Assembly: GCA_963746345.1 (NCBI GenBank)
Contig: CAVVAN010000004.1
Span: 582,063-646,062, forward strand
DNA length: 64,000 bases
Source: an uncultured Verrucomicrobiae bacterium
GTDB lineage: Bacteria > Verrucomicrobiota > Verrucomicrobiia > Limisphaerales > UBA11358
Reading direction: 5' to 3'
Part shown: piece by piece, positions 4,433 through 41,551 of the stretch
Position numbering within the stretch: position 1 is the stretch's first letter
Layout of the letters: the number at the start of each line of letters is the position of its first letter
The notes under the pieces: generated by a model
Told to the model about the DNA's origin: nothing
What the model saw: only the letters and a program-made list of their open reading frames with translations
The model's database searches: none
Position numbers and translations under genes: made by a program

Positions 4433-5984
4433 ATGAAACTTAAGCGGCAATCGTTGGTTTCCCAAGGTTCACTGCACCGCATATTTGAAGAGGTCAATAA
4501 GTCTTGGAAACAATTTGATTTTCAGGTGGCTATCGAGTTGATGGAACGCGCCAGTCGACTTGACCCGGCAAACGCCGGCCTCCTGTTGGATTTGGGTCGC
4601 ATGTATGGGCTGCGTTATGATTATGCCGCAGCCGGACATTGTTTTGATAAAGCCGTTCGTATCTCACCAAAAAAAATCGAAATGCTCGCCGCAGCCGGTT
4701 TGCAAAGCCGCGATTTTGGTAACTTTCCGATGTCCGAACGTTATTACTTGTTGGCGTCCGAACAAAAAGACGCCACGCCGGAAGTATTTGTTCAATTGGC
4801 AAAACTTTATGAACGTCTTCGCCGGATGGAAGACGCCGCCGATATGGTAGAACGGGCGTTGAAACTTAATAGCGCCTGTCCAGAGGCGTTGCTCACCCGC
4901 GCCCGATTGGAACGACAGAATGGCCGATTGGAAGAAGCTGAAAAACTTATCCGCTCGTTCGTCAATAAATCAAATCCCGATGTTTGGATACATGCCCAGA
5001 CCTGGTATGAACTCGGCGCGATTCTTGATCGTCAGGGGAAATACGACGATGCCTTTGCCGCTTTCGTGCAAGCCAAAGCGCTCTTGCGCCCGAATGCAGA
5101 ACGTCTTCTTGATGAATTAAAAATTGTCCGCAAACGTATCACGGACATGCAGGCCCATATTTCCGCCGAAGCATTGCAACGTTGGTTCGATTGCGCGGCG
5201 GCACTGCGACCGAGTAAGCGATTGGCACTTTTAGGCGGACATCCCCGCTCTGGAACGACCCTGCTGGAGCAAGTTTTGGACTCACATTCAGAACATTGTC
5301 TCGGTGGAAGAAACAACAATTTTTCACGACGAAGGCTATATGCCGCTAACCCGCAGTTTGCCGGACCAACCCATGTTGTCGGTTCTTGAAGGGGCGCAGA
5401 CAAATACATTGCAGCAATCGCGCGCGAACTATTTCCGTTCCGTAGAAAGATTTCTTGGCAAGCCGGTCGGTGAATGTCTGGTGATTGACAAAAATCCATC
5501 GCTGACTTTTTTGATTCCGCTTCTCATCCGAGTATTTCCTGAAATAAAATTTCTCATCGCAGTGCGAGACCCGCGCGATGTGGTTTTGAGTTGTTTCATG
5601 CAGTCTTTGCCGCTCGAACAAGGCAGTTCGGCCTATTTGAGCCTGGAAAGCACCGTTGATGAATACACCGCCATGATGAGTCTATGGCGGACGCTTGCGC
5701 CTTTGATAAAAAATCAATTCCTCGAAGTGCGTTACGAAGACATGGTGAATGATCTGGAATCCGTCGCGCGGCGGACGTTGGATTTTCTTGGCGTTCCGTG
5801 GGATGCGCGCGTGCTGGGATTTGACGAACATGCACGGCAAAAAGTTGTGCGCTCGCCGACCTACGCCGACGTGACCAAACCGGTCTATAAAGGCGCTGTT
5901 GGCCGCTGGCGCAATTACCAGAAATACCTCGAACCGCACTTGGAAAAATTGGCGCCGTTCGTCAAGACTTTCGGATATGAATAA
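4433..5984 (+). pseudogene. TPR-repeat sulfotransferase, paralogue 1 (one frameshift near 5292)
   Basis: ORFs 4433..5389 and 5304..5984 together are colinear with the 514-aa paralogues downstream. The frame switches inside LEQVLDSHSE|IVSVEETTIF, where an extra A is seen in gaac at ~5292. PAPS motifs GGHPRSGTTL and RDPRDVVLS are present. Confidence 0.8.
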
Positions 5985-6018
5985 CTGGCGGAGACGCCGC
6001 AGCGCGCCATTCGAATAA

Positions 6019-6348
6019 TCAATTCAATTCCAGCAGCCATGCGATTTTATCGCGCACGGCCAAAGTTATCCGGGCTTCAAATTGTCCGGCGCGACGTTCC
6101 AGCCGGTGATTTTCAACAGAGGTCAGTCCCTGAACATTTGCCACGCCTTCGTCCGCGCCGGGCAACCAGCGCACGCGCGGCAGCTTCACTTCATAATCAC
6201 CACTGCGAATCTGCGTCGTCAATGGCACGCACACGCATAAGGCGCGTTCCGCGTCCACATCTTCACGAGAGACCACCATCAGCGGACGAAGCTTGCCTTT
6301 CAGTCCCAAATCCACCCAATACACCTCACCAGGCTTTGGATTTGTCAT
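6019..6348 (-). CDS. mazF: MazF/PemK-family type II toxin (mRNA interferase)
   Basis: 109 aa. PGEVYWVDLG...RPLMVVS...VCVPLTT pattern is typical of PemK/MazF. It overlaps the upstream antitoxin gene by 23 nt. Confidence 0.8.
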   Translation of the reverse strand: MTNPKPGEVYWVDLGLKGKLRPLMVVSREDVDAERALCVCVPLTTQIRSGDYEVKLPRVRWLPGADEGVANVQGLTSVENHRLERRAGQFEARITLAVRDKIAWLLELN

Positions 6349-6544
6349 AAAAACTTTCCAGCGTGGCGGCGCGCAGTTCCCAAGCTTCGGCGGGCGATTC
6401 CGTCTTGTCCGGAACGGAGATTTTGGGCGCAGGCATGATCCACCAGCCGCCGCTCTCCATTGTCACCAAATACTTTGCGCCCTTGCGCGTGCCCCGGATG
6501 CAGACGCGGCCCTTGTCATCAGCTTTTACCAAAGTCGTTTCCAT
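6326..6544 (-). CDS. mazE: AbrB/MazE/SpoVT-family antitoxin
   Basis: 72 aa. N-terminal swapped-hairpin-like VKADDKGRVCIRG. Lies immediately upstream of and overlapping the MazF-like gene. Confidence 0.65.
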   Translation of the reverse strand: METTLVKADDKGRVCIRGTRKGAKYLVTMESGGWWIMPAPKISVPDKTESPAEAWELRAATLESFYDKSKAW

Positions 6545-6706: not shown

Positions 6707-8251
6707 ATGAGACGGCTACAGTTGGTTTCCCAAGGTTCTTTGAGCCGCATGATCAAGTCGGCGGATGAATCCTGGGAACGGGGCGACTCGCAGCAATGTT
6801 TTGAGACGTTGGAACGCGCCAGCCGTCTCGACCCGGGCAATCCCAAAATGCAGTTCTATTTGGCCCAGCGTTATGGATTGCATTACAACCACGCCGCAGC
6901 CGAACGTTGCTTTGAACAGGCCGTTCGCATTGCACTGCATAAAACGGAAGCCTTGGAATTTGCCGGACGGCTGTCCCTCGATTTTGGCCGTCATCAAATG
7001 GCCGAGGATTATTTCCGGCGCGCTTTAGAACAAAAAGACGCCTCCGCTGAAACCTTCGCCAGACTCGCGGAACTTTATGAGCGCCTTCATCGCACGGAAG
7101 ATGCCTCCAAACTCGTCGCTCAAGCCTTGCAGTTGGATGACAACTGCGCTTTGGCACAACTCACTCGCGCAAAATTATATCGCCGGGCGGGTCGCCTAGA
7201 AGAAGCAGAAAAAATTCTGCGGTTGTTTCCAACCATAACCGAACGCTATATCCAAGTGCGCCGATTTTACGAATTGGGCGCGAATCTTGATCTTCAAGGA
7301 CGTTATGACAATGCCATGAGCGCGTTTCTTGAAGGCAAGGCGCTATTGCAACCGGATGCGCCGCCATTGCTCGCGCAATTGAAATTGGTTCGCGAACGCT
7401 TGAAGCAGATGCAAAATGACATCACCCCTGAAATGCTTCAACGCTGGCATGATTGCGCCCCGGCGCTGGCACCCGGCCATCGTCTGGCATTTTTGGGTGG
7501 ACATCCCCGTTCCGGCACAACGTTGTTGGAACAAGTTCTGGACTCGCACCCCGACATCGTCTCGGCAGAAGAGACAACAATTTTTAATGATGAAGCCTAT
7601 ATGCCGCTCATGCGCGGCTTGCCACAAAACACATCCTTGCTGTCAGCGCTGGAGGCCGCGCAAACCGGAACATTGCGTCAGGCTCGTAAAAATTACTTTC
7701 GTTCGATGGAAATGCACTTGTGCAATCCCATCGGTCAACGTCTGTTGATTGACAAAAATCCCTCCATTCAATCTTTGATTCTTGCCTTTGTCCGAATCTT
7801 TCCCGAAATAAAACTTTTGGTGGCGTTGCGCGATCCGCGCGATGTGGTCTTAAGTTCGTTCATGCAGGTTTATTTGCCCATCAGCACCGGCAGCGTGTCC
7901 GCGCTGAACCTTGAAGTCGCCGTTGAAAATTATGCCGGCGTCATGGGAATCTGGCAAAAGCTCGCGCCATTGATAAAAAATCCATTTCTTGAAGTGCGTT
8001 ACGAGGACATGGTGAACGATTTGGAATCTGTAGCACGGCGGACATTGGATTTTCTTGGCGCACCGTGGGATGCTCATGTGCTCGGTTTTGACAAACACGC
8101 GCAGCAAAAACTGATGCGCTGCCCGACTTACGCTGACGTGACGCAGCCTGTCTATAAACGCGCCCACGGACGCTGGCACAATTACAAAAAATATCTCGAA
8201 CCACACTTGGCCAAACTGGAGCCATTTATCAAAGCGTTCGGTTATGAATAA
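6707..8251 (+). CDS. TPR-repeat sulfotransferase, paralogue 2
   Basis: Intact 514 aa. N-terminal TPRs, 5'-PSB motif GGHPRSGTTLLEQ, 3'-PB motif RDPRDVVLSSF. Confidence 0.8.
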   Translation: MRRLQLVSQGSLSRMIKSADESWERGDSQQCFETLERASRLDPGNPKMQFYLAQRYGLHYNHAAAERCFEQAVRIALHKTEALEFAGRLSLDFGRHQMAEDYFRRALEQKDASAETFARLAELYERLHRTEDASKLVAQALQLDDNCALAQLTRAKLYRRAGRLEEAEKILRLFPTITERYIQVRRFYELGANLDLQGRYDNAMSAFLEGKALLQPDAPPLLAQLKLVRERLKQMQNDITPEMLQRWHDCAPALAPGHRLAFLGGHPRSGTTLLEQVLDSHPDIVSAEETTIFNDEAYMPLMRGLPQNTSLLSALEAAQTGTLRQARKNYFRSMEMHLCNPIGQRLLIDKNPSIQSLILAFVRIFPEIKLLVALRDPRDVVLSSFMQVYLPISTGSVSALNLEVAVENYAGVMGIWQKLAPLIKNPFLEVRYEDMVNDLESVARRTLDFLGAPWDAHVLGFDKHAQQKLMRCPTYADVTQPVYKRAHGRWHNYKKYLEPHLAKLEPFIKAFGYE

Positions 8252-8281
8252 GGCACATCAAGCACCTAAAACTTTCAAACG

Positions 8282-9826
8282 ATGAAACGTCCACAAATAA
8301 TTTCTTCAGGGTCTCTAAATCGAATGTTGGAAACTGCCGCCAAATCCTGGGAGTCTTACGATTTTCAGCAATGCTTTGAAATAATGGAGCGCGCCAGCCG
8401 TTTGGACCCCGCCAATCCCGGAATCATGCTTCAGTCAGGACGATATTATGGATTGCGCTATGATTACGCCGCCGCGACACAGTGTTTTGACAAGGCGATT
8501 CGCGTTGCCTCAAATAAAACTGAAGTTCTGGCGACTGCTGGGCGGTTGTCCGCTGATTTTTCGAAACCAGAAATAGCACAGGGTTATTTTCAACATGCCT
8601 TGCAACAAAAAGACGCTTCCGCCGAAACCTTCGCCAGATTAGCGGAACTTTACGAACGTCTTCATCGTATGGAAGAGGCATACGGATTAATAAACCAGGC
8701 GTTACGACTGGACGGCAACTGCGCTTTGGCGTTGCTCACTCTTGCGAGATTAGACCGCCGAAAGGGACGACTGGAAGAATCTGAAAAAAATCTCCGTGCA
8801 TTTTTAACAAAGGCTGACAGGCACATCCAGATTCGCGGTTATTACGAATTGGGCGCAAATCTTGACCTTCAAGGACGCTACGATGAAGCTATGACAGCGT
8901 TTTTGGAGGCTAAGGCGATGTTACATTTTGAAGCTCAACCATTGCTAACCAAATTACAAATTGATCGCGTTGTTATAAGGGAGAGGCAAGCCGGATTCAC
9001 GGCCGAAACAATGCAACGCTGGTTTGACTTTGGGTGCCAACTCCAGCCTACCCAACGCCTGGCATTTCTTGGTGGTCATCCACGTTCGGGGACGACGCTT
9101 CTGGAACAAGTATTAGATTCCCACCATGACATTGTTTCAGCCGAGGAGACACGGGTCTTTGTGGACGAAGCGTTCATGCCCCTCAGATCCGGTCTGCCGG
9201 AAGACTCATCGATGTTAGCCATCTTGGAATCGGCACGGGGCAGTGCGTTGCAGCAGTCCCGGGCGAGGTATTTTCGTTTCATTGAAATGAACTTAGAAAA
9301 AGTAATTGGTGGCAGGTTGCTCATCGACAAGAATCCTGCTATAACCCTTTTCATTCCCGCTTTCATCCGAGTTTTCCCCGAAGTAAAAATTCTGATGGCG
9401 TTACGTGATCCGCGGGACGTGGTGGTGAGCTGCTTCATGCAATCCTATGTGCCGGTTGCGCCGGGCAATGTGTCCTATCTAACTCTAGAAAATGCTTGTG
9501 ATGGCTATACGTTTATGATGGGAGGTTGGAGAAAATTTGCGCCGCTGCTTAAAAATCCCTGCCTCGAGATACGCTACGAAGACATGGTCAATGATCTGGA
9601 ATCCGTGGCGCGGCGGACGTTGGAGTTTCTTGGTGTTCCGTGGGATGCGCGCGTGCTGGGATTTGACGAACATGCGCGGCAAAAAGTAGTGCGCTCGCCC
9701 ACATATGCCGACGTGACCAAGGCGGTCTATAAAGGCGCAATTGGCCGCTGGCGCAACTACCAGAAATATCTCGAACCGCATCTGGCCAGACTGGAGCCTT
9801 TTATCAAAGCATTTGGTTATGAATAA
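8282..9826 (+). CDS. TPR-repeat sulfotransferase, paralogue 3
   Basis: Intact 514 aa with the same architecture. The last ~85 aa are nearly identical to paralogue 1. Confidence 0.8.
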   Translation: MKRPQIISSGSLNRMLETAAKSWESYDFQQCFEIMERASRLDPANPGIMLQSGRYYGLRYDYAAATQCFDKAIRVASNKTEVLATAGRLSADFSKPEIAQGYFQHALQQKDASAETFARLAELYERLHRMEEAYGLINQALRLDGNCALALLTLARLDRRKGRLEESEKNLRAFLTKADRHIQIRGYYELGANLDLQGRYDEAMTAFLEAKAMLHFEAQPLLTKLQIDRVVIRERQAGFTAETMQRWFDFGCQLQPTQRLAFLGGHPRSGTTLLEQVLDSHHDIVSAEETRVFVDEAFMPLRSGLPEDSSMLAILESARGSALQQSRARYFRFIEMNLEKVIGGRLLIDKNPAITLFIPAFIRVFPEVKILMALRDPRDVVVSCFMQSYVPVAPGNVSYLTLENACDGYTFMMGGWRKFAPLLKNPCLEIRYEDMVNDLESVARRTLEFLGVPWDARVLGFDEHARQKVVRSPTYADVTKAVYKGAIGRWRNYQKYLEPHLARLEPFIKAFGYE

Positions 9827-9851
9827 CCGGTAGAGACTCGCGCTTTTCGTT

Positions 9852-10075
9852 GGTAGGGACGCCGCGCTGCGGCGTCCGGACATCGCAGCGCGATGTCCCT
9901 ACCTTTGTGTGCCGTCGGCGCATTGTTCCTTTTTTGGCAGGGTCAGCGCGCTGCACTGACCGGACATCCCAGCGGAATGTCCCTACCAAGTTTAACTCCG
10001 ATCCAGACATCGCAGCGCGATGTCCCTACCCGCACCCTGCCATTTGAAGGACGGCGCAGCGCGGCCATCCCTACC
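9852..10075. repeat. cluster of four REP-like palindromic units
   Basis: Units at 9852-9903, 9937-9987, 10003-10030 and 10049-10075 all end in (t/a)(g/t)(t/c)ccctacc. Unit 1 has outer stem ggtagggac/gtccctacc enclosing hairpins gccgc-gct-gcggc and ggacatcgc-agc-gcgatgtcc. Confidence 0.75.
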
Positions 10076-10076
10076 A

Positions 10077-10104
10077 ACAAAAAAGCCGCCCCGAAGGGCG
10101 GCTT
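10077..10104 (-). terminator. rho-independent terminator of the PEP-CTERM gene
   Basis: Perfect 9-bp stem aagccgccc/gggcggctt with loop cgaa, followed on the minus strand by a T-run. Confidence 0.75.
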
Positions 10105-10130
10105 GAAACCTAAAACTTTAACAAAGCCGA

Positions 10131-10769
10131 TCAGGCTTTGCGACGGCGCAAGGCCAAGAGGCCAGCGGCACCCAAACCAAGCAACGCCATCGTTGTCGGT
10201 TCCGGAACAGCAAGAGCAACTGTAAACGAGCTAAAGCCCGTTGCTCCACCTTCGGAAATACCACCGTTACCATCGGAAGTTCCTAGAGGCAAAAAGTCAT
10301 TGTATGATGGACTTGAAGTGCCTGAAACAAGCATCGTGAACGGACCTGACATGCCCGTAATCGTGCCAGCAAGATTACCACCAATTGTCGTATTATTAAA
10401 TGCGCCCCACTCAAGTGTGGCATTTCCACCGGTTACTCCATTCATAGGAATAACAGCATTTACTGACAACGTATAACCAGCACTGGTCGCGCCATCTGCA
10501 ACAGTGCCTCCAAGTGAACCAAACTGTGTTATGCTGGAAGGAATGGCAATATAGCTGGAACCAACAAGATAATACAGTTCAGCGCTAAAATCAGATCCAA
10601 CAGCTAAATCAGCTTTTCCAGCCGGCACGTTGGAACCTGCGTAGGTTACTGGTGATCCAATGTCAGCGGACGCATTGCTATAATTACCAAAGTAAACTCC
10701 TCCCTGACCAAACGAAGACAACGCTGCAACGCCGCTTCCCAATATTCCGATGATTAATTTCTTTTTCAT
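10131..10769 (-). CDS. PEP-CTERM sorting-domain secreted protein
   Basis: 212 aa with a signal peptide. C-terminal VPEPTTMALLGLGAAGLLALRRRKA gives PEP motif, TM helix and basic tail. Confidence 0.85.
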   Translation of the reverse strand: MKKKLIIGILGSGVAALSSFGQGGVYFGNYSNASADIGSPVTYAGSNVPAGKADLAVGSDFSAELYYLVGSSYIAIPSSITQFGSLGGTVADGATSAGYTLSVNAVIPMNGVTGGNATLEWGAFNNTTIGGNLAGTITGMSGPFTMLVSGTSSPSYNDFLPLGTSDGNGGISEGGATGFSSFTVALAVPEPTTMALLGLGAAGLLALRRRKA

Positions 10770-35457: not shown

Positions 35458-36540
35458 ATGGCAAGCACCTTCGGACAATTGTTCCGCATCACGACGTGGG
35501 GCGAATCTCATGGCGGCGGCGTGGGCGTGGTCGTGGACGGCTGCCCGCCGCGCCTGAAACTTGACCGAGGCGGACATCCAGCCGGATTTGGATCGCCGCC
35601 GTCCGGGGCAATCCAAAATCGTCACGCCGCGCAAGGAATCGGACACGGTGCAAATCCTTTCCGGCACGTTCGGCGGCAAAACGCTCGGCACGCCGATTTG
35701 TCTCTGGGTCAAAAACGAGGACGCGCGGCCCGAAGCGTATTCGGAAATGAAGGACCAAATTCCGCCCGTCGCACGCGGACTTCACTTATTTCGCCAAATA
35801 CGGCATCCGCGCCTGGCAGGGCGGCGGACGCGCCAGCGCGCGCGAAACAGTTGGCCGCGTCGCCGCCGGCGCGATCGCCAAAAAAATTTTGCGCGAAAGA
35901 TTCGGCGTCGAGACTCTGGCCTACGTCAAGCAAGTCCAAAAGATTTCCGCCGAAATAAATCCCGACAAGGTAAAATTTTCCGAAGTCGAATCCAACATCG
36001 TTCGTTGTCCCGACGCAAACGCGGCCGATCAAAATGATCCGGCTCATCGAAAAAATGCGGCGCGAGGGCAACACCGTCGGCGGCATCGTCGAAGGCATTG
36101 CGCGCGGCGTTCCCGCCGGCTGGGGCGAACCGGTTTTTGACAAGCTCGAAGCGGACTTGGCAAAGGCGATGTTGAGCCTGCCCGCGTCGAAGGCGTTTGA
36201 AATCGGCTCCGGTTTCGGCGGCATTTTGCTGACGGGCCGCGAGCACAACGACGCCTTTCGCGCGCGGAACAAAAAAGTTTTCACGACGACGAACCGTTCC
36301 GGCGGCATCCAGGGCGGCATTTCAAACGGCGAGACGATTTTTTTCCGCGTCGCGTTCAAGCCCGTCGCCACCGTCATGCACGAGCAGGACACGGTTGACG
36401 AAAAATTTGAAAACACGACGCTTAAAGGCCGCGGCCGCCATGATCCGTGCGTGCTGCCGCGCGCGGTGCCGATGGTCGAGGCGATGACCGCGCTCGTTTT
36501 GGTTGACCATGCGCTGCGCCAAAAAGCGCAATGCGGTTGA
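35458..36540 (+). pseudogene. aroC: chorismate synthase (about 3 frameshifts)
   Basis: [23 protein letters not shown], ..[20 protein letters not shown].., [28 protein letters not shown], ..GRHDPCV.PRA.. read sequentially in different frames. Confidence 0.9.
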
Positions 36541-36584
36541 TTTTTTCCATCAGCCGTTGCATTTTTATCAAACATAGAAACAAC

Positions 36585-38003
36585 ATGGCTGAAAAAAACA
36601 TCAACGAAATTTCGCGCGACGCGCGACTGCTATTACACCAAGGCCAACGAAGCCGCGCAGCGGGAAAATGCGGATTACGCCATCGCGCTGTTCAACCAGG
36701 TGCTGGAAAAGGAGCCGGCGTTTTTTGAAGGCCGCAAGGCGTTGCGCGCGGCGCAATTCAAAAAGGCCGGCAGCGAGCGGCGGCGGATTTTTCAAAAAAA
36801 TGTTGAGCGGCGCCGGTTCCTCGCCGCAAGTGGCCAAGGCTAAAATGGCGTTGGGCAAAAATCCCGGCCGAAGCCATGGCCATCGCCGAGCAGATTTTGA
36901 ACGGCGACCCGAACAATTCCGCCGCGCATCGCATCATCGTGGACGCGGCGAGTGCGCTGGAATTGCCGCACACGGCGGTTTTGTCCTACGAAACGCTTGT
37001 CGAACAATTCGCCGAAGGACAGAAATCTGGCGATTGAATTTGCCCACGCGCTCGCGGCGGCTGGCGATGTCAGCGCGGGCGAAAATAATCGCGGCGAAAA
37101 AATCCTGATGGACCTGTTGCGCGACAACCCCAACGACGGCGAATTGAACCAGGCGTTGAAAAATTTGTCCGCGCGCAAGACGCTCGATGAAGGCGGCTAC
37201 GGCGCGCTCGAAGGCGGCAAGGGTTCTTTCCGCGACATTTTGAAGAACAAGGCCGAGGCCGTTTCGCTTGAACAGGAAAAGCGCGTCGTCAAAACCGAGG
37301 ACGTCACCGAACGGCTCATCGGCGAATACGAAACGCGCCTGCAAACCGAGCCGAACAATCTCAAGCTCGTGCGCTCGCTCGCGGAACTTTACACGCAGAA
37401 AAAACAGTTCGACCAGGCGCTGGAGCTTTACGACCGCATCAAAAATTCCGAGATGGGCAACGACCCGTCGCTCGAACGCGCGATGGCCGAGACGATGGTG
37501 CGCCAGTTCGATTTTCAACTGGAGCAACTTGAATCCGTTCGCGCCGGACCACGCCGAACAGGTGGCGAAAATCAAGGCGGAGAAATTGGATTATCAACTG
37601 GCCGAATGCCAGAAGCGCGTCGAAAAATATCCCACGGATTTGACCATCCGGTTTGAAATGGGCGCGCTTTATTTTCAGGCGGGCAAATTCAGCGAAGCCA
37701 TCCAGGAATTTCAAAAGGCGCAGAAACAATCCGCACAAACGTCTCGCCGCGATGAGTTATCTCGCGCAGTGCTACGCAAAAAGAAAGATGTTCGATCTCG
37801 CCGCACGCACGTTGCAGAACGCCATCAAGGAAAAACCCGCGTTTGACGACGAGAAGAAAGACCTGATTTACAATCTCGGCTGCGTGTTCGAAAACATGGG
37901 CAAAAAAGAGGAAGCCATCGAACAGTTCAAACTCATTTACGAAATGGACGCGAGCTACAAAGATGTCACTGCCAAGGTGGAAGCGTTTTACGCGGGGCAG
38001 TGA
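36585..38003 (+). pseudogene. TPR-repeat protein (at least 6 frameshifts)
   Basis: Start MAEKNINEISRDAR. TPR-like segments continue through ORFs 36668.., 36952.., 37268.. and 37653..38003 (..FKLIYEMDASYKDVTAKVEAFYAGQ*). Confidence 0.6.
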
Positions 38004-38082: not shown

Positions 38083-38574
38083 ATGAAGAATTGGATTCAG
38101 TTTGCGGGACTCACAATGTTATTGTATTTCAGCTTTAGTATGTTGACCGGTTGCGAGTCATTGCAGGATACATCATTTGCCCCACTCGACGCCAAACTTG
38201 AACCCATCCCCGGTGGAGGCGCACAATACTTTGTGGTCGTCAATGCCAGCAGACAGACATTGCATAACTTCCGCTTCTCGGTCGATATGTGGGACGATCA
38301 CGCCATCACCTTTATCGGAAATGACCCCACCACTATTCCGATTCATCTTCCAGCAATGACATACAGATTCACAAGTTCCGGCTCCGAATTGAAACCCGGT
38401 GAAGTGGTGCATTTTAGAAAAGATCAAGGGATGGGCGCCGAAGGTCCGGTTCTCAATCCGGCATCCAGAGTGCAGATTGCCGGCAGTTGTGATGAGGGGC
38501 GTTTCCGCGAAGATTGGCAGGTCAACGGATCTGGCCAGTTACAGCCGATTGGTACCGGCCCACATGGAGAATGA
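38083..38574 (+). CDS. lipoprotein of unknown function
   Basis: 163 aa with lipobox MLTGC|E. Lower GC. Confidence 0.5.
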   Translation: MKNWIQFAGLTMLLYFSFSMLTGCESLQDTSFAPLDAKLEPIPGGGAQYFVVVNASRQTLHNFRFSVDMWDDHAITFIGNDPTTIPIHLPAMTYRFTSSGSELKPGEVVHFRKDQGMGAEGPVLNPASRVQIAGSCDEGRFREDWQVNGSGQLQPIGTGPHGE

Positions 38575-38593
38575 CTTGTGCAGCTTTGGATCG

Positions 38594-39451
38594 TCAGCCG
38601 GAGATTTTAACGCTGAACATTTCCGCGTTCATTGTGCCCTCAAAAACTTTCGTCACCGCGCCGGTCATGCGAATCGCATAATCGTCGCCGATCTCAATCT
38701 CAATGATTCCGCCGGGCATGTGGACGGAAATCTCATTGTCGCATCGGCCAAGTTTGTGCGCCACCGCCGCCGCCGCGCTGCTGCTGCTGCCGCTGGCCAG
38801 CGTGTAGCCCGCGCCGCGCTCCCAGATTTCAATCTGGATGTTTTTCCGATCGAGGATTTTCATGAGCTGCACGTTGGTGCGATTTGGAAAACGCAAATGC
38901 GTTTCGAGCATGGGACCGATTTGCTTCGCCAGCTCGGCGCTGATATTAGGCAGCGGAAGCACGCAATGCGGATTGCCTATGGTGGCGCCGCAAAAATTAA
39001 ACCGCTGGCCGCGCAAATAAATCGGTTCGTTGATGACTTCGCGGCGCGGGCCGGCCACGGGAATTTCATCGCTCCAAAAACTGACTTTGCCCATTTCAAC
39101 GCGCACGATTTTGCCGCGTTCCATGACGGTGGCTTGCACCAGACCGCCGCGCGTCTCTATGGCAAAATCGTCTTTGCGGACAAGTTTTCGATCCCACAAG
39201 TAACGCGAAAAAATCCGCAGGCCGTTGCCACTTTTTTCCGCCTCGCTGCCGTTGGGATTGAAAATGCGCAGCGCGAACTTCGCTTTCTTCGACGGCAACG
39301 GGCCGAGCAGAATTCCATCCGAGCCGACGCCGAAATTTCTGTGGCAGATAATTTTGATTTGCTCCGGCGTCAGCGGCGACGGCAGATTTTTCGGGTCAAT
39401 GACAATGTAGTCGTTGCCCAGCGCATGATATTTTGTGAACGCCCAAACCAT
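38594..39451 (-). CDS. diaminopimelate epimerase homologue with Ser at both catalytic Cys positions
   Basis: Intact 285 aa, colinear with DapF (HALGNDY.V.D, FNPNGSEAEK-S-GNG, GNPHCV, ERGAGYTLA-S-GSS). Ser74 codon AGT is at 39230-39232 and Ser220 codon AGC at 38792-38794. Confidence 0.75.
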   Translation of the reverse strand: MVWAFTKYHALGNDYIVIDPKNLPSPLTPEQIKIICHRNFGVGSDGILLGPLPSKKAKFALRIFNPNGSEAEKSGNGLRIFSRYLWDRKLVRKDDFAIETRGGLVQATVMERGKIVRVEMGKVSFWSDEIPVAGPRREVINEPIYLRGQRFNFCGATIGNPHCVLPLPNISAELAKQIGPMLETHLRFPNRTNVQLMKILDRKNIQIEIWERGAGYTLASGSSSSAAAAVAHKLGRCDNEISVHMPGGIIEIEIGDDYAIRMTGAVTKVFEGTMNAEMFSVKISG

Positions 39452-39543
39452 GAACGAAAGGATACTGCTTTGCGTCCAAAGAGCAAAACGAGAATGTGCG
39501 CGGGATTAAAAAACTTTTCAACCGGCTGAAAAACTTGCAAAGT

Positions 39544-41551
39544 ATGCGCGTGTTGACTGAAAGTGGAACAAAGGTTTTGCCGGCCCAATCGTCCGCGCAA
39601 CTCCAATTTCAAACCGAATTTGCAAGGGAATTGGAAGCCGCCATTTTGCGGTCGCAGAAATTTCTTCTCGGCGAACAAAAGCCGGAAGGCTACTGGATCG
39701 GCGAATTGATGGTGGATTCCACGCTCGTTTCGGACATGGTCGCGTATCATCACTGGAACGGCAAAGTGGACCAGCGAATGGCAGCGCAAGGCGGTCAACC
39801 ACATCTTCTCCATGCAATTGCCCGACGGCGGCTGGAACATTTATTACGGCGGCCCGTCGGAAGTCAACGCGACCATCAAGGCCTATCTGGCGCTGAAACT
39901 GGCCGGGGTGTCCGGTGACCGATCCGCGCATGTTGCAGCGCGCGCGAAGTCGCGCTGCAGTCTCGGCGGCGTGCCGCGCATGAACACATTTTCCAAATTG
40001 TATCTCGCGCTGCTCGGACTTGTTTCCGTGGGAATATGTGCCGACCATTCCCTGCGAAGTGATGCTGCATCGGCAAATGGTTTCACGTGAATTTCTGGGA
40101 CATGAGCAACTGGTCGCGCGGCGATGCTCGTGCCGCTGGCCATCATCAACCATTTCAAGCCGACGCGCCCGGTGAAAGTGAATCTGGACGAACTTTATCC
40201 CGACGGCATCCACGAACGCGACCTTGCGCTCGCGCCCGACCCGGAAAAAATTTCGCTGGCGCAATTTTTTCCTGTGGCTGGACCGTCTGCACAAATTCGC
40301 CGAATGGTTCGCCGAGCATAAAATCCATCCGTTCCGCAAAATCGCGCTGAAAAAATGCGAGAACTGGATGCTCGAACGCTTTGAAGGCACCGACGGCCTG
40401 GCCGCGATTTTCCCGGCGATGCTCAATTCGCTCATCGCGTTGAAAGCGCTGGGTTATCCCGACGACCATCCGCAAGTCGTCCGCGCCGCGCATGAGTTGA
40501 AAAAACTGGAGCACGAGACGGAAGATAACGTCCGCATCGAGCCGTGTTTTTCGCCGGTCTGGGACACGGCCATCGTCGCGATTTGCCTGCACGAATCCGG
40601 CATTTCCGAAGACCATCCGCGACTGAAAAAGGCCGCCGAATGGCTGATGGAAAAGGAAATCCGTTTTCGCGGCGACTGGCATTACAAAAATCCGGCGAAC
40701 GTCGAGCCGAGCGGCTGGGTTTTTGAATTCAACAACAAATGGAATCCGGACGTGGACGACACGGCGATGGTGCTGCTCGCGTTGCGGAAAATTCCGACGG
40801 ACAATCCGCAAAAGCGCGACGAATGTTTCCAGCGCGGCTTGAAATGGATGATGACATTTCAATGCAAGGACGGCGGCTGGGCGTCGTTCGACAAGGATTG
40901 CACGAAAAACATTTTGGAAAAAGTTCCGTTCGCCGACCACAACGCCATGCTCGATCCCGAATGCGCCGACATCACCGCGCGCATTCTGGAATTGCTCGGC
41001 TACGAAGATTGGAGCAACGGCCATCCGCAGGTCGAAGAGGCGCTTGCAATTCATCCGCGACGCATCAGGAAGACGACGGCTCGTGGTATGGCCGCTGGGG
41101 CGTGAATTACATTTACGGCACCTGGCAGGTTTTGCGCGGAATGCGCGCGCTGAACCTGGACATGAACGAAGCCTGGCTTCAACGCGGCCGCGCGTGGCTG
41201 GAAAGCGTCCAGCACGAAGACGGCGGCTGGGGCGAACGCTGCAACACTTACGACGATCCGGTTTTCAAAGGCCAGGGGCCCAGCACCGCCTCGCAAACCG
41301 CGTGGGCCGTCATGGGCCTGTGCGCGTTCGACGATCCGGAAAATCCCGCGCTCAAACGCGGCATCGAATATCTTGATGCGCACGCAAAATCCCGACGGCT
41401 CGTGGACGGAACACGAAACGACCGGCACGGGTTTCCCGAAAGTGTTTTATTTGAAATACGACATGTACCGCAACGCCTGGCCGCTGCTCGCGCTGGCGAC
41501 TTATAAAAAAATCTGCGAACGCGCGGCGGCGAAAAACGGCGCGCATCCTTA
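39544..41551 (+). pseudogene. shc: squalene-hopene cyclase (about 8 frameshifts)
   Basis: QW-type repeats (..Q.PDGGWNIYYGG.., QCKDGGWASF, QHEDGGWGE), DxDD motif PDVDDTAMV, C-terminus ..TGTGFPKVFYLKYDMYRNAWPLLALA.. spread over many frames. Confidence 0.9.

Follow-up and report, generated by a model that had tools for sequence, protein, structure and literature searches.

Diaminopimelate (DAP) epimerase, DapF, is the textbook two-base racemase with a catalytic thiol/thiolate pair and a validated antibacterial target, and its best inhibitors, the aziridino-DAP compounds, alkylate the catalytic cysteines. Here we describe a DapF homologue that has serine in place of both cysteines. Its gene lies in a stretch of 64,000 nucleotides (the window) from an uncultured Verrucomicrobiae bacterium (GenBank assembly GCA_963746345.1, contig CAVVAN010000004.1, positions 582,063 to 646,062), and its relatives with the same two serines extend across many bacterial phyla.

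The canonical DapFs against which the window protein is best judged are those of E. coli (b3809), H. influenzae (PDB 1GQZ and 2GKE), Anabaena (9MRO) and A. thaliana (3EJX). With these it has 34–36% identity, the two-domain fold and the DAP-contact residues in common, and its Ser/Ser relatives also have the same operon partners. It differs from them in having Ser for both catalytic Cys and Ile for a third conserved Cys, in several further residues typical of its relatives, and in belonging to a separate clade. Serine at the catalytic positions of this fold is familiar from laboratory mutants, namely C73S and C217S of H. influenzae DapF (PDB 2Q9H and 2Q9J) and C67S/C209S of HisR. These are single substitutions that trap the open form, whereas in the window protein both sites are Ser by nature, purifying selection is strong and other substitutions accompany the change. 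The first-pass annotation stated that such mutants lose epimerase activity; this needs correction, as papers on DapF-fold racemases describe "hindered" or "greatly reduced" catalysis and not a complete loss.

Natural precedents for an oxygen nucleophile or base are found in EcL-DER, the Asp/Glu racemase of E. coli, and in the trans-3-hydroxy-L-proline dehydratases, in which Thr replaces a catalytic Cys. However, these enzymes have lost just one Cys of the pair, their reaction is altered (one-way or elimination), and they belong to other superfamilies or subfamilies with 13–16% identity to the window protein; structures of the dehydratases are among its Foldseek fold matches. The chlamydial bifunctional DapF/glutamate racemase (NF038284) is likewise a DapF of the Planctomycetota-Verrucomicrobiota-Chlamydiota (PVC) superphylum with a proposed unusual chemistry, but it keeps and requires both Cys. 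We rejected that assignment for the window protein, which scored 62.9 bits against a cut-off of 350 and lacks the Cys pair. DapF2 of staphylococci, an Alr-fold enzyme dependent on pyridoxal phosphate (PLP), is another non-canonical answer to the same pathway step, although its fold and cofactor are unrelated. No natural Ser/Ser DapF was described in the open-access full-text literature that we searched (subscription papers were outside the search), and the nearest precedents are the C73S/C217S laboratory mutants and the natural single Thr-for-Cys variants elsewhere.

A DapF homologue with serine at both catalytic sites

The gene is an intact open reading frame (ORF) of 285 codons plus stop, as seen in both the ORF listing and the sequence. 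PF01678 (DAP_epimerase), the only Pfam model to match the protein, does so in two domains (E 7.5e-60; 200.8 bits against a cut-off of 34.7), and the NCBIfam DapF equivalog TIGR00652 spans residues 4–274 with 237.9 bits against a cut-off of 114.65. The best matches among solved structures, as determined by phmmer, are all DapFs (E 3e-57 to 1e-46). The protein is above the curated cut-offs and colinear with DapF along its full length, in agreement with the first-pass annotation. There is no second dapF in the window.

In the phmmer alignments with the solved DapFs 9mro, 8qzy and 3ejx, Ser74 and Ser220 lie opposite the catalytic Cys, the window motifs SEAEK-S-GNG and YTLA-S-GS aligning with SEPEM-C-GNG and ITLA-C-GT. 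The protein has these two serines in place of the thiol/thiolate pair Cys73 and Cys217. Their codons, AGT and AGC, are each a single transversion away from TGT/TGC, so that alignments and codons alike uphold what had been read from the letters alone. The features concerned are as follows.

38594..39451, minus strand: coding sequence of the Ser/Ser-type DapF homologue (ORF, two PF01678 matches, TIGR00652, matches to solved DapFs, AlphaFold2 model, Foldseek)
39230..39232, minus strand: codon 74, AGT, Ser; site of Cys73 in E. coli and H. influenzae and of Cys75 in Anabaena, directly before helix 75–87
38792..38794, minus strand: codon 220, AGC, Ser; site of Cys217 in E. coli and H. influenzae and of Cys224 in Anabaena, directly before helix 221–233
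39251..39253, minus strand: codon 67, AAC, Asn; a departure, specific to the window, from the Asp of the N-x-D-G-S motif

The AlphaFold2 model of the window protein, built on an alignment of 57 diverse members of its clade, has a pLDDT of 96.4 and a pTM of 0.92. Helices 75–87 and 221–233 of the model directly follow Ser74 and Ser220, where canonical DapFs have their catalytic Cys, at the N-terminal ends of the two central helices. The predicted fold, with two pseudo-symmetric alpha/beta domains and the catalytic residues at these two N-termini, is that of DapF, and Foldseek gave template modelling (TM) scores of 0.84–0.91 to DapF structures from eight organisms. Scores to the PhzF/proline-racemase relatives were only about 0.62–0.78, with 12–17% identity. 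PhzF/YddE and the proline racemase, hydroxyproline epimerase and dehydratase families were rejected as assignments on these scores and on the Pfam result; their catalytic residues are Glu/Asp in PhzF and Cys/Cys or Cys/Thr in the proline racemase family. DcsC, the O-ureidoserine racemase with a Cys/Cys pair, was also rejected, as its structure 7vdy matched with an E value of 4e-36 against 3e-57 for the DapFs (TM 0.91), the DAP distal site is intact and there is no cycloserine context.

The DAP-binding site is retained in full. Anabaena DapF contacts its ligand through Asn13, Asn66, Gly76, Asn77, Asn164, Asn197, Glu215, Arg216, Gly225 and Thr226 in addition to the two Cys, and in the 9mro alignment the equivalents of these ten residues are N13, N65, G75, N76, N160, N193, E211, R212, G221 and S222. 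Across the 57 clade members, every one of these positions is conserved at 96% or above, some without exception, position 222 being Ser or Thr. The residues that bind the ends of DAP in the H. influenzae enzyme (Asn11, Asn64, Asn157, Asn190, Glu208, Arg209, Gly74, Asn75, Gly218 and Ser/Thr219) are likewise all present. As far as sequence and a predicted structure can tell, homology, fold and binding-site conservation all identify the protein as a DapF.

This conservation bears on the possibility that the protein carries out a different reaction, such as an elimination, an isomerisation or a one-way inversion, on a DAP-like diamino-dicarboxylate or a lysine-derived amino acid. Thr in place of a catalytic Cys does alter the outcome in related superfamilies, as in the one-way Asp racemase and the 3-hydroxyproline dehydratases. 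However, none of the distal-site residues that recognize the L-amino-acid end of DAP has been lost here, and with both bases changed no obvious single-base chemistry remains.

The Ser/Ser clade

The nearest homologues of the window protein are in metagenome-assembled genomes (MAGs) of Limisphaerales and other Verrucomicrobiia, which fits the Verrucomicrobiota suggested in the first-pass annotation. Close homologues with the Ser/Ser state number about 360 in all. Two of them, P0001 and P0002, are 95% identical to it from end to end, with substitutions only and no gaps, and both are Ser/Ser. Among the best 120 homologue matches, Ser is present at site 220 in 120/120 and at site 74 in 119/120. 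When an Opitutaceae member was used as the query, 105 of 120 matches were Ser/Ser and the other 15 could not be scored at site 74 but have Ser at site 220; the Ser/Ser matches include a protein of the isolate Opitutus sp. GAS368 (WP_091059749.1). We also searched exhaustively 1.84 billion representatives of clusters at 50% identity. Of the best 150 (36–70% identity), 125 are Ser/Ser and only four are Cys/Cys, and a few have mixed S/C, C/S, T/C or S/T forms.

When each GTDB species was scanned through a single genome, at least 592 relatives were confirmed. In the best 80 of these loci the Ser form was found wherever the motif was readable. They come from Verrucomicrobiota (Limisphaerales, Opitutaceae and Methylacidimicrobium), Planctomycetota (Pirellulales, Brocadiaceae and Sedimentisphaerales), Chloroflexota, Desulfobacterota and Myxococcota, along with a few MAGs labelled as Armatimonadota, Cyanobacteria, Gammaproteobacteria and Burkholderiales, such labels being fallible. 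The comparison of orthologues proposed in the first-pass annotation, as to whether Ser/Ser is lineage-wide, gave a positive answer that extends well outside the lineage.

In a neighbour-joining tree calculated with both catalytic columns masked, nearly all Ser/Ser sequences form one clade with the canonical DapFs outside it. The Ser/Ser representative P0243 is an exception that falls with a canonical sequence, and the mixed forms lie singly at scattered places within the clade. Judged by this tree and by the searches, the Ser/Ser DapFs are a large monophyletic clade across many phyla and not a quirk of one lineage, and their shared state is far beyond chance. The natural T/C, S/C, C/S and S/T combinations (P0151, P0174, P0249 and P0133) are isolated members of the clade, and could be evolutionary intermediates or sequencing errors.

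The codons used for the two serines, counted over 81 loci, were as follows.

Site 74: AGC 44, AGT 10, TCC 17, TCG 3, TCA 3, TCT 0
Site 220: AGC 19, AGT 1, TCC 27, TCG 25, TCA 4, TCT 5

Ser is present at both sites in 57/57 diverse clade members, and the AGY and the TCN class are both in use at each site. A change between them requires two steps, with Cys (TGY) or Thr (ACN) in between, and serine must therefore have been kept through repeated changes of codon class. The rare natural Cys and Thr forms would be the expected one-step codon intermediates. Together with the ratio of nonsynonymous to synonymous substitution (dN/dS), which is 0.10–0.20 over the whole gene between the window and its relatives, these counts point firmly to clade-wide selection for Ser at both sites.

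The same results decide the question of whether the two serine codons are a sequencing or assembly artefact, or belong to a decaying pseudogene, in an error-rich window. The adjacent genes are indeed full of frameshifts, and the window copy has an unusual Asn67. However, the errors in the window are indels, as had been noted from the letters alone: the squalene-hopene cyclase, chorismate synthase and TPR genes are frameshifted, while dapF is full-length and gap-free against its 95%-identical homologues. Ser/Ser is also found in hundreds of independent assemblies, the Opitutus isolate included. Because of the conservation in homologues, the dN/dS values and the gap-free alignment we reject this explanation, which we regard as extremely improbable.

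Residues that change together with the cysteines

We compared 57 Ser/Ser proteins with nine canonical sequences (five from the PDB and four Cys/Cys representatives), the canonical sample being small. Both half-sites have clusters of clade-specific substitutions, and the positions that distinguish the two groups are listed below, with coordinates in the window for those near the active site.

39233..39235, minus strand: codon 73, AAA, Lys; clade-specific basic residue in the loop that bends round the substrate (Pro-Glu-Met in Anabaena DapF); K/R in 88% of the clade (K in 75%), Met, Gln or Ser in canonical DapFs
39212..39214, minus strand: codon 80, ATT, Ile; I in 95% of the clade, replacing the third conserved Cys of canonical DapFs (CGNGxRC)
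38867..38869, minus strand: codon 195, CAG, Gln; two residues after the DAP-binding Asn193; Q in 89% of the clade, mostly Glu in canonical DapFs
38804..38806, minus strand: codon 216, TAC, Tyr; Y in 81% of the clade, mostly Glu in canonical DapFs (ERGAG-E-T)
38783..38785, minus strand: codon 223, AGC, Ser; first turn of helix 221–233; S in 89% of the clade, Gly in canonical DapFs (C-G-T-G)
Position 245: M in the clade, L in canonical DapFs
Position 266: V in the clade, A in canonical DapFs
Position 15: Tyr in 55/57 of the clade, Phe in 6/9 canonical DapFs

The active-site shell of the clade has gained one basic residue and lost two acidic ones, a change that would favour an alkoxide. No cysteine specific to the clade was found in this comparison that could take over from the missing pair; conserved cysteines elsewhere were one of the observations named in the first-pass annotation as overturning its interpretation. 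Cys36 and Cys163 are conserved, but canonical DapFs have both too; Cys225 is Ser in the window protein, and Cys154 and Cys237 are not conserved. A PLP cofactor on Lys73, by comparison with chlamydial DapF and alanine racemase, is unlikely given that the residue is Arg in 12% of the clade and non-basic in a further 12%.

These substitutions raise the possibility that the same LL/meso-DAP reaction takes place with its protons moved by other groups, the two serines merely positioning the substrate. Lys/Arg73, Tyr15 or Tyr216, a His162–Glu211 pair and active-site waters are the candidates. K/R73, Y216 and Q195 are clade-specific and Tyr15 is nearly fixed. His162 (93% of the clade) and Glu211 are conserved, and Gly46 does not vary; the Anabaena and plant DapFs also have Gly at the equivalent position and contain two waters in the active site. 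Against the complete conservation of the serines, however, Lys73 and Tyr216 reach only the frequencies listed above. Furthermore, no basic residue of canonical DapF comes closer than 4 Å to the catalytic sulfurs, and the residues of the loop do not touch the substrate. We consider this explanation unlikely.

Genomic context

The neighbours of dapF in the window are a lipoprotein gene, the frameshifted squalene-hopene cyclase gene and DHODH, and a loosely syntenic contig of a relative was equally uninformative. Clustering of the neighbourhoods of the 81 loci revealed only lineage-specific housekeeping blocks, namely an Opitutaceae block and squalene-hopene cyclase with DHODH near the relatives of the window gene.

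In individual relatives the Ser/Ser gene is linked to the DAP pathway. Three Verrucomicrobia MAGs (L012, L019 and L021) have dapF(SS)-dapA-dapB, and a fourth (L032) has dapB-dapA-dapF(SS), the gene order indicated by the locus tags of V. spinosum. Two Polyangiaceae MAGs (L030 and L080) have dapF(SS)-dapL followed by a lysA-like gene; their DapL proteins scored 546 and 551 bits against a TIGR03542 cut-off of 365, while the decarboxylase has lysA as its best match (236–256 bits) but is under the cut-off of 298. The linkage is also seen in fused proteins. LysA-DapF(SS) fusions scored 360 and 410 bits with TIGR01048, above the cut-off, and a DapF(SS)-MurE fusion, with eight cluster members on independent contigs, is above the cut-off for the meso-DAP ligase. 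The gene for this fusion shares a 4-bp overlap with lysA. Two Alr-DapF(SS) fusions likewise exceed the NCBIfam cut-offs. In one Burkholderiales MAG a YigA-like DUF484 gene comes after the Ser/Ser gene, and after it xerC, the product of which is 51% identical to E. coli XerC; the Ser/Ser gene here occupies the slot of dapF in the dapF-yigA-xerC arrangement of E. coli. By its sequence, fold and binding site, and by the genomic role seen in its relatives, the gene is a DapF; what it lacks is the thiol/thiolate pair, the mechanistic hallmark of the characterised enzyme.

Published work on related organisms bears on this step. Opitutaceae, whose DapFs are all Ser/Ser in our searches, have walls that contain DAP, and one DapF is listed for Lacunisphaera. 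For V. spinosum, only one dapF is reported, with DapL as the sole route and no Ddh activity. The DapFs of Lacunisphaera limnophila (WP_069963382.1) and V. spinosum were absent among the listed matches and cluster members.

A second explanation for the loss of both thiols is that the protein is a pseudoenzyme that binds DAP but is catalytically dead, serving as a scaffold, a regulator or a channel to LysA or MurE, while meso-DAP comes from another enzyme. Engineered Ser mutants are poor enzymes, and RppH is a structural partner of E. coli DapF (PDB 6d13). E. coli without dapF still grows by means of another racemase, the unrelated PLP-dependent DapF2 exists as an alternative DAP epimerase, and some Ser/Ser domains are fused to Alr-fold racemases. 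However, by score (TIGR00492) the Alr parts of these fusions are ordinary alanine racemases, and in relatives the gene is in biosynthetic operons at the proper place of dapF, including the canonical proteobacterial slot. The serines are absolutely conserved across codon classes, every substrate contact and the geometry at the helix N-termini are conserved too, and this exceeds the needs of a binding role. A dead protein is, in our estimation, improbable.

The context also bears on the proposal of a different reaction. A Ser/Ser member with 38% identity is in an operon with oxygenase, reductase and aminotransferase genes in Micromonospora, and there are fusions with GGACT, GNAT and methyltransferase domains. 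The core of the clade, however, is tied to dapA, dapB, dapL, lysA and murE and not to catabolic or secondary-metabolite genes, and we regard a change of reaction or substrate in the window protein as quite improbable.

Three loci of relatives have features of their own. The distant homologue of Micromonospora sp. (L082, 8016–15162; JBEXIL010000007.1) has as operon partners a haem-oxygenase-like protein, a 2-oxoglutarate-Fe oxygenase, a molybdopterin oxidoreductase, an aldo-keto reductase and an aminotransferase. This operon resembles nitro- or aminocyclopropyl-alanine pathways, and the homologue probably has a different function. In L078, a Burkholderiales MAG, a decayed partial copy of the Ser/Ser gene, interrupted by a stop codon and shifted in frame (5598–6358), is present 4 kb upstream of the intact copy, the two being parted by glycosyl- and methyltransferase genes, which suggests an insertion that duplicated part of dapF. 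In L084, a LysA-DapF(SS) fusion (8001–10211) is beside oligopeptide transporters, an NlpC/P60 peptidase with an SH3 domain and an amidohydrolase, and the cluster looks like one for peptidoglycan-peptide salvage.

Probable function and proposed mechanism

The first-pass annotation left three possibilities: an inactive protein, a different mechanism or another substrate. The evidence does not treat these alike, but narrows towards the same pathway and substrate with a different catalytic chemistry. On balance we lean, with modest conviction, towards the gene encoding the working enzyme that converts LL-DAP to meso-DAP for lysine and peptidoglycan in this organism, which would make it a member of a distinct and ancient Ser/Ser subfamily of DapF. 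We infer that it has epimerase activity, that the serines are the proton-transfer residues and that it is the sole DapF of the genome.

In the proposed mechanism the DapF fold, the active site at two helices and all DAP contacts are retained, and the two serines take the place of the thiol and thiolate where these two helices begin. That the geometry is unaltered and both serines are absolutely conserved suggests that they would act as the acid/base pair, in hydroxyl and alkoxide form and possibly with a bound water. Such a water would fit the invariant Gly46, which is shared with the Anabaena and plant enzymes and their water-containing active sites. The more electropositive shell, with Lys/Arg73 gained and the acidic residues at 195 and 216 lost, could assist them. 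As three Cys of the active-site region (canonical 73, 79/80 and 217) have been purged, the enzyme would be insensitive to oxidation and to thiol reagents. A slower DapF may be sufficient, since a kcat of only 0.15 s-1 has been reported for the M. tuberculosis enzyme and since E. coli grows without dapF.

Several points weigh against this interpretation. A serine hydroxyl is a far weaker acid than a thiol. Engineered Cys-to-Ser racemases of the DapF fold have greatly reduced turnover, and among the solved DapF structures matched, the only ones with Ser are the C73S and C217S mutants; the solved or characterised proteins found include no Ser/Ser member. Neither Lys73 nor Tyr216 is invariant, which weakens the idea of helper residues. 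In the window the gene has no neighbours from the DAP pathway, and the Micromonospora member in its secondary-metabolite-like operon indicates that the scaffold can take other roles. Lastly, position 67 is nearly invariant: 56/57 clade members have Asp there, as do the two homologues with 95% identity, while the window protein has Asn, either as a real variant or as a base error.

More tentatively, we propose for the clade as a whole that its members could be the sole and fully competent DAP epimerases of their carriers in Verrucomicrobiota, Planctomycetota, Chloroflexota and other phyla. They would then be the first natural cofactor-independent amino-acid epimerases in which oxygen acid/bases, without any thiol, carry out the two-base 1,1-proton transfer. 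The form would have had a single origin, with part of its spread due to gene transfer in which it replaced canonical dapF in situ, and its carriers would be intrinsically indifferent to thiol-directed inhibitors and to oxidative inactivation.

If it is true that a large natural clade does the job of DapF without either Cys, this would challenge the thiol requirement for such chemistry and offer enzymologists an example from nature of C-alpha deprotonation by oxygen. Whole phyla would probably escape DapF inhibitors directed at thiols. PVC bacteria without MurI have been proposed to make D-glutamate through a promiscuous, Cys-dependent DapF, an idea that cannot apply unchanged to Ser/Ser DapFs. 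There is also a blind spot in annotation, as TIGR00652, PGAP and IMG label these proteins as diaminopimelate epimerase with the missing active site unflagged.

Other features of the window

An antisense ORF of 376 codons (38399–39529, plus strand) spans the whole dapF-like gene, and related antisense ORFs are present at 51/81 loci; these are most likely a by-product of the conserved sense frame. The squalene-hopene cyclase gene (39496–41534, plus strand) is spread over three frames in comparison with an intact orthologue, which indicates several indels, whether from faulty assembly or from decay of the gene. The same indel problem is seen across dapF from it (35561–36540 and 36531–38003, plus strand), where chorismate-synthase-like ORFs are in two frames and a gene with TPR repeats is broken into four ORFs that overlap. 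Farther away, two adjacent paralogues of 514 amino acids (6707–8251 and 8282–9826, plus strand) each have TPR repeats and a sulfotransferase domain.

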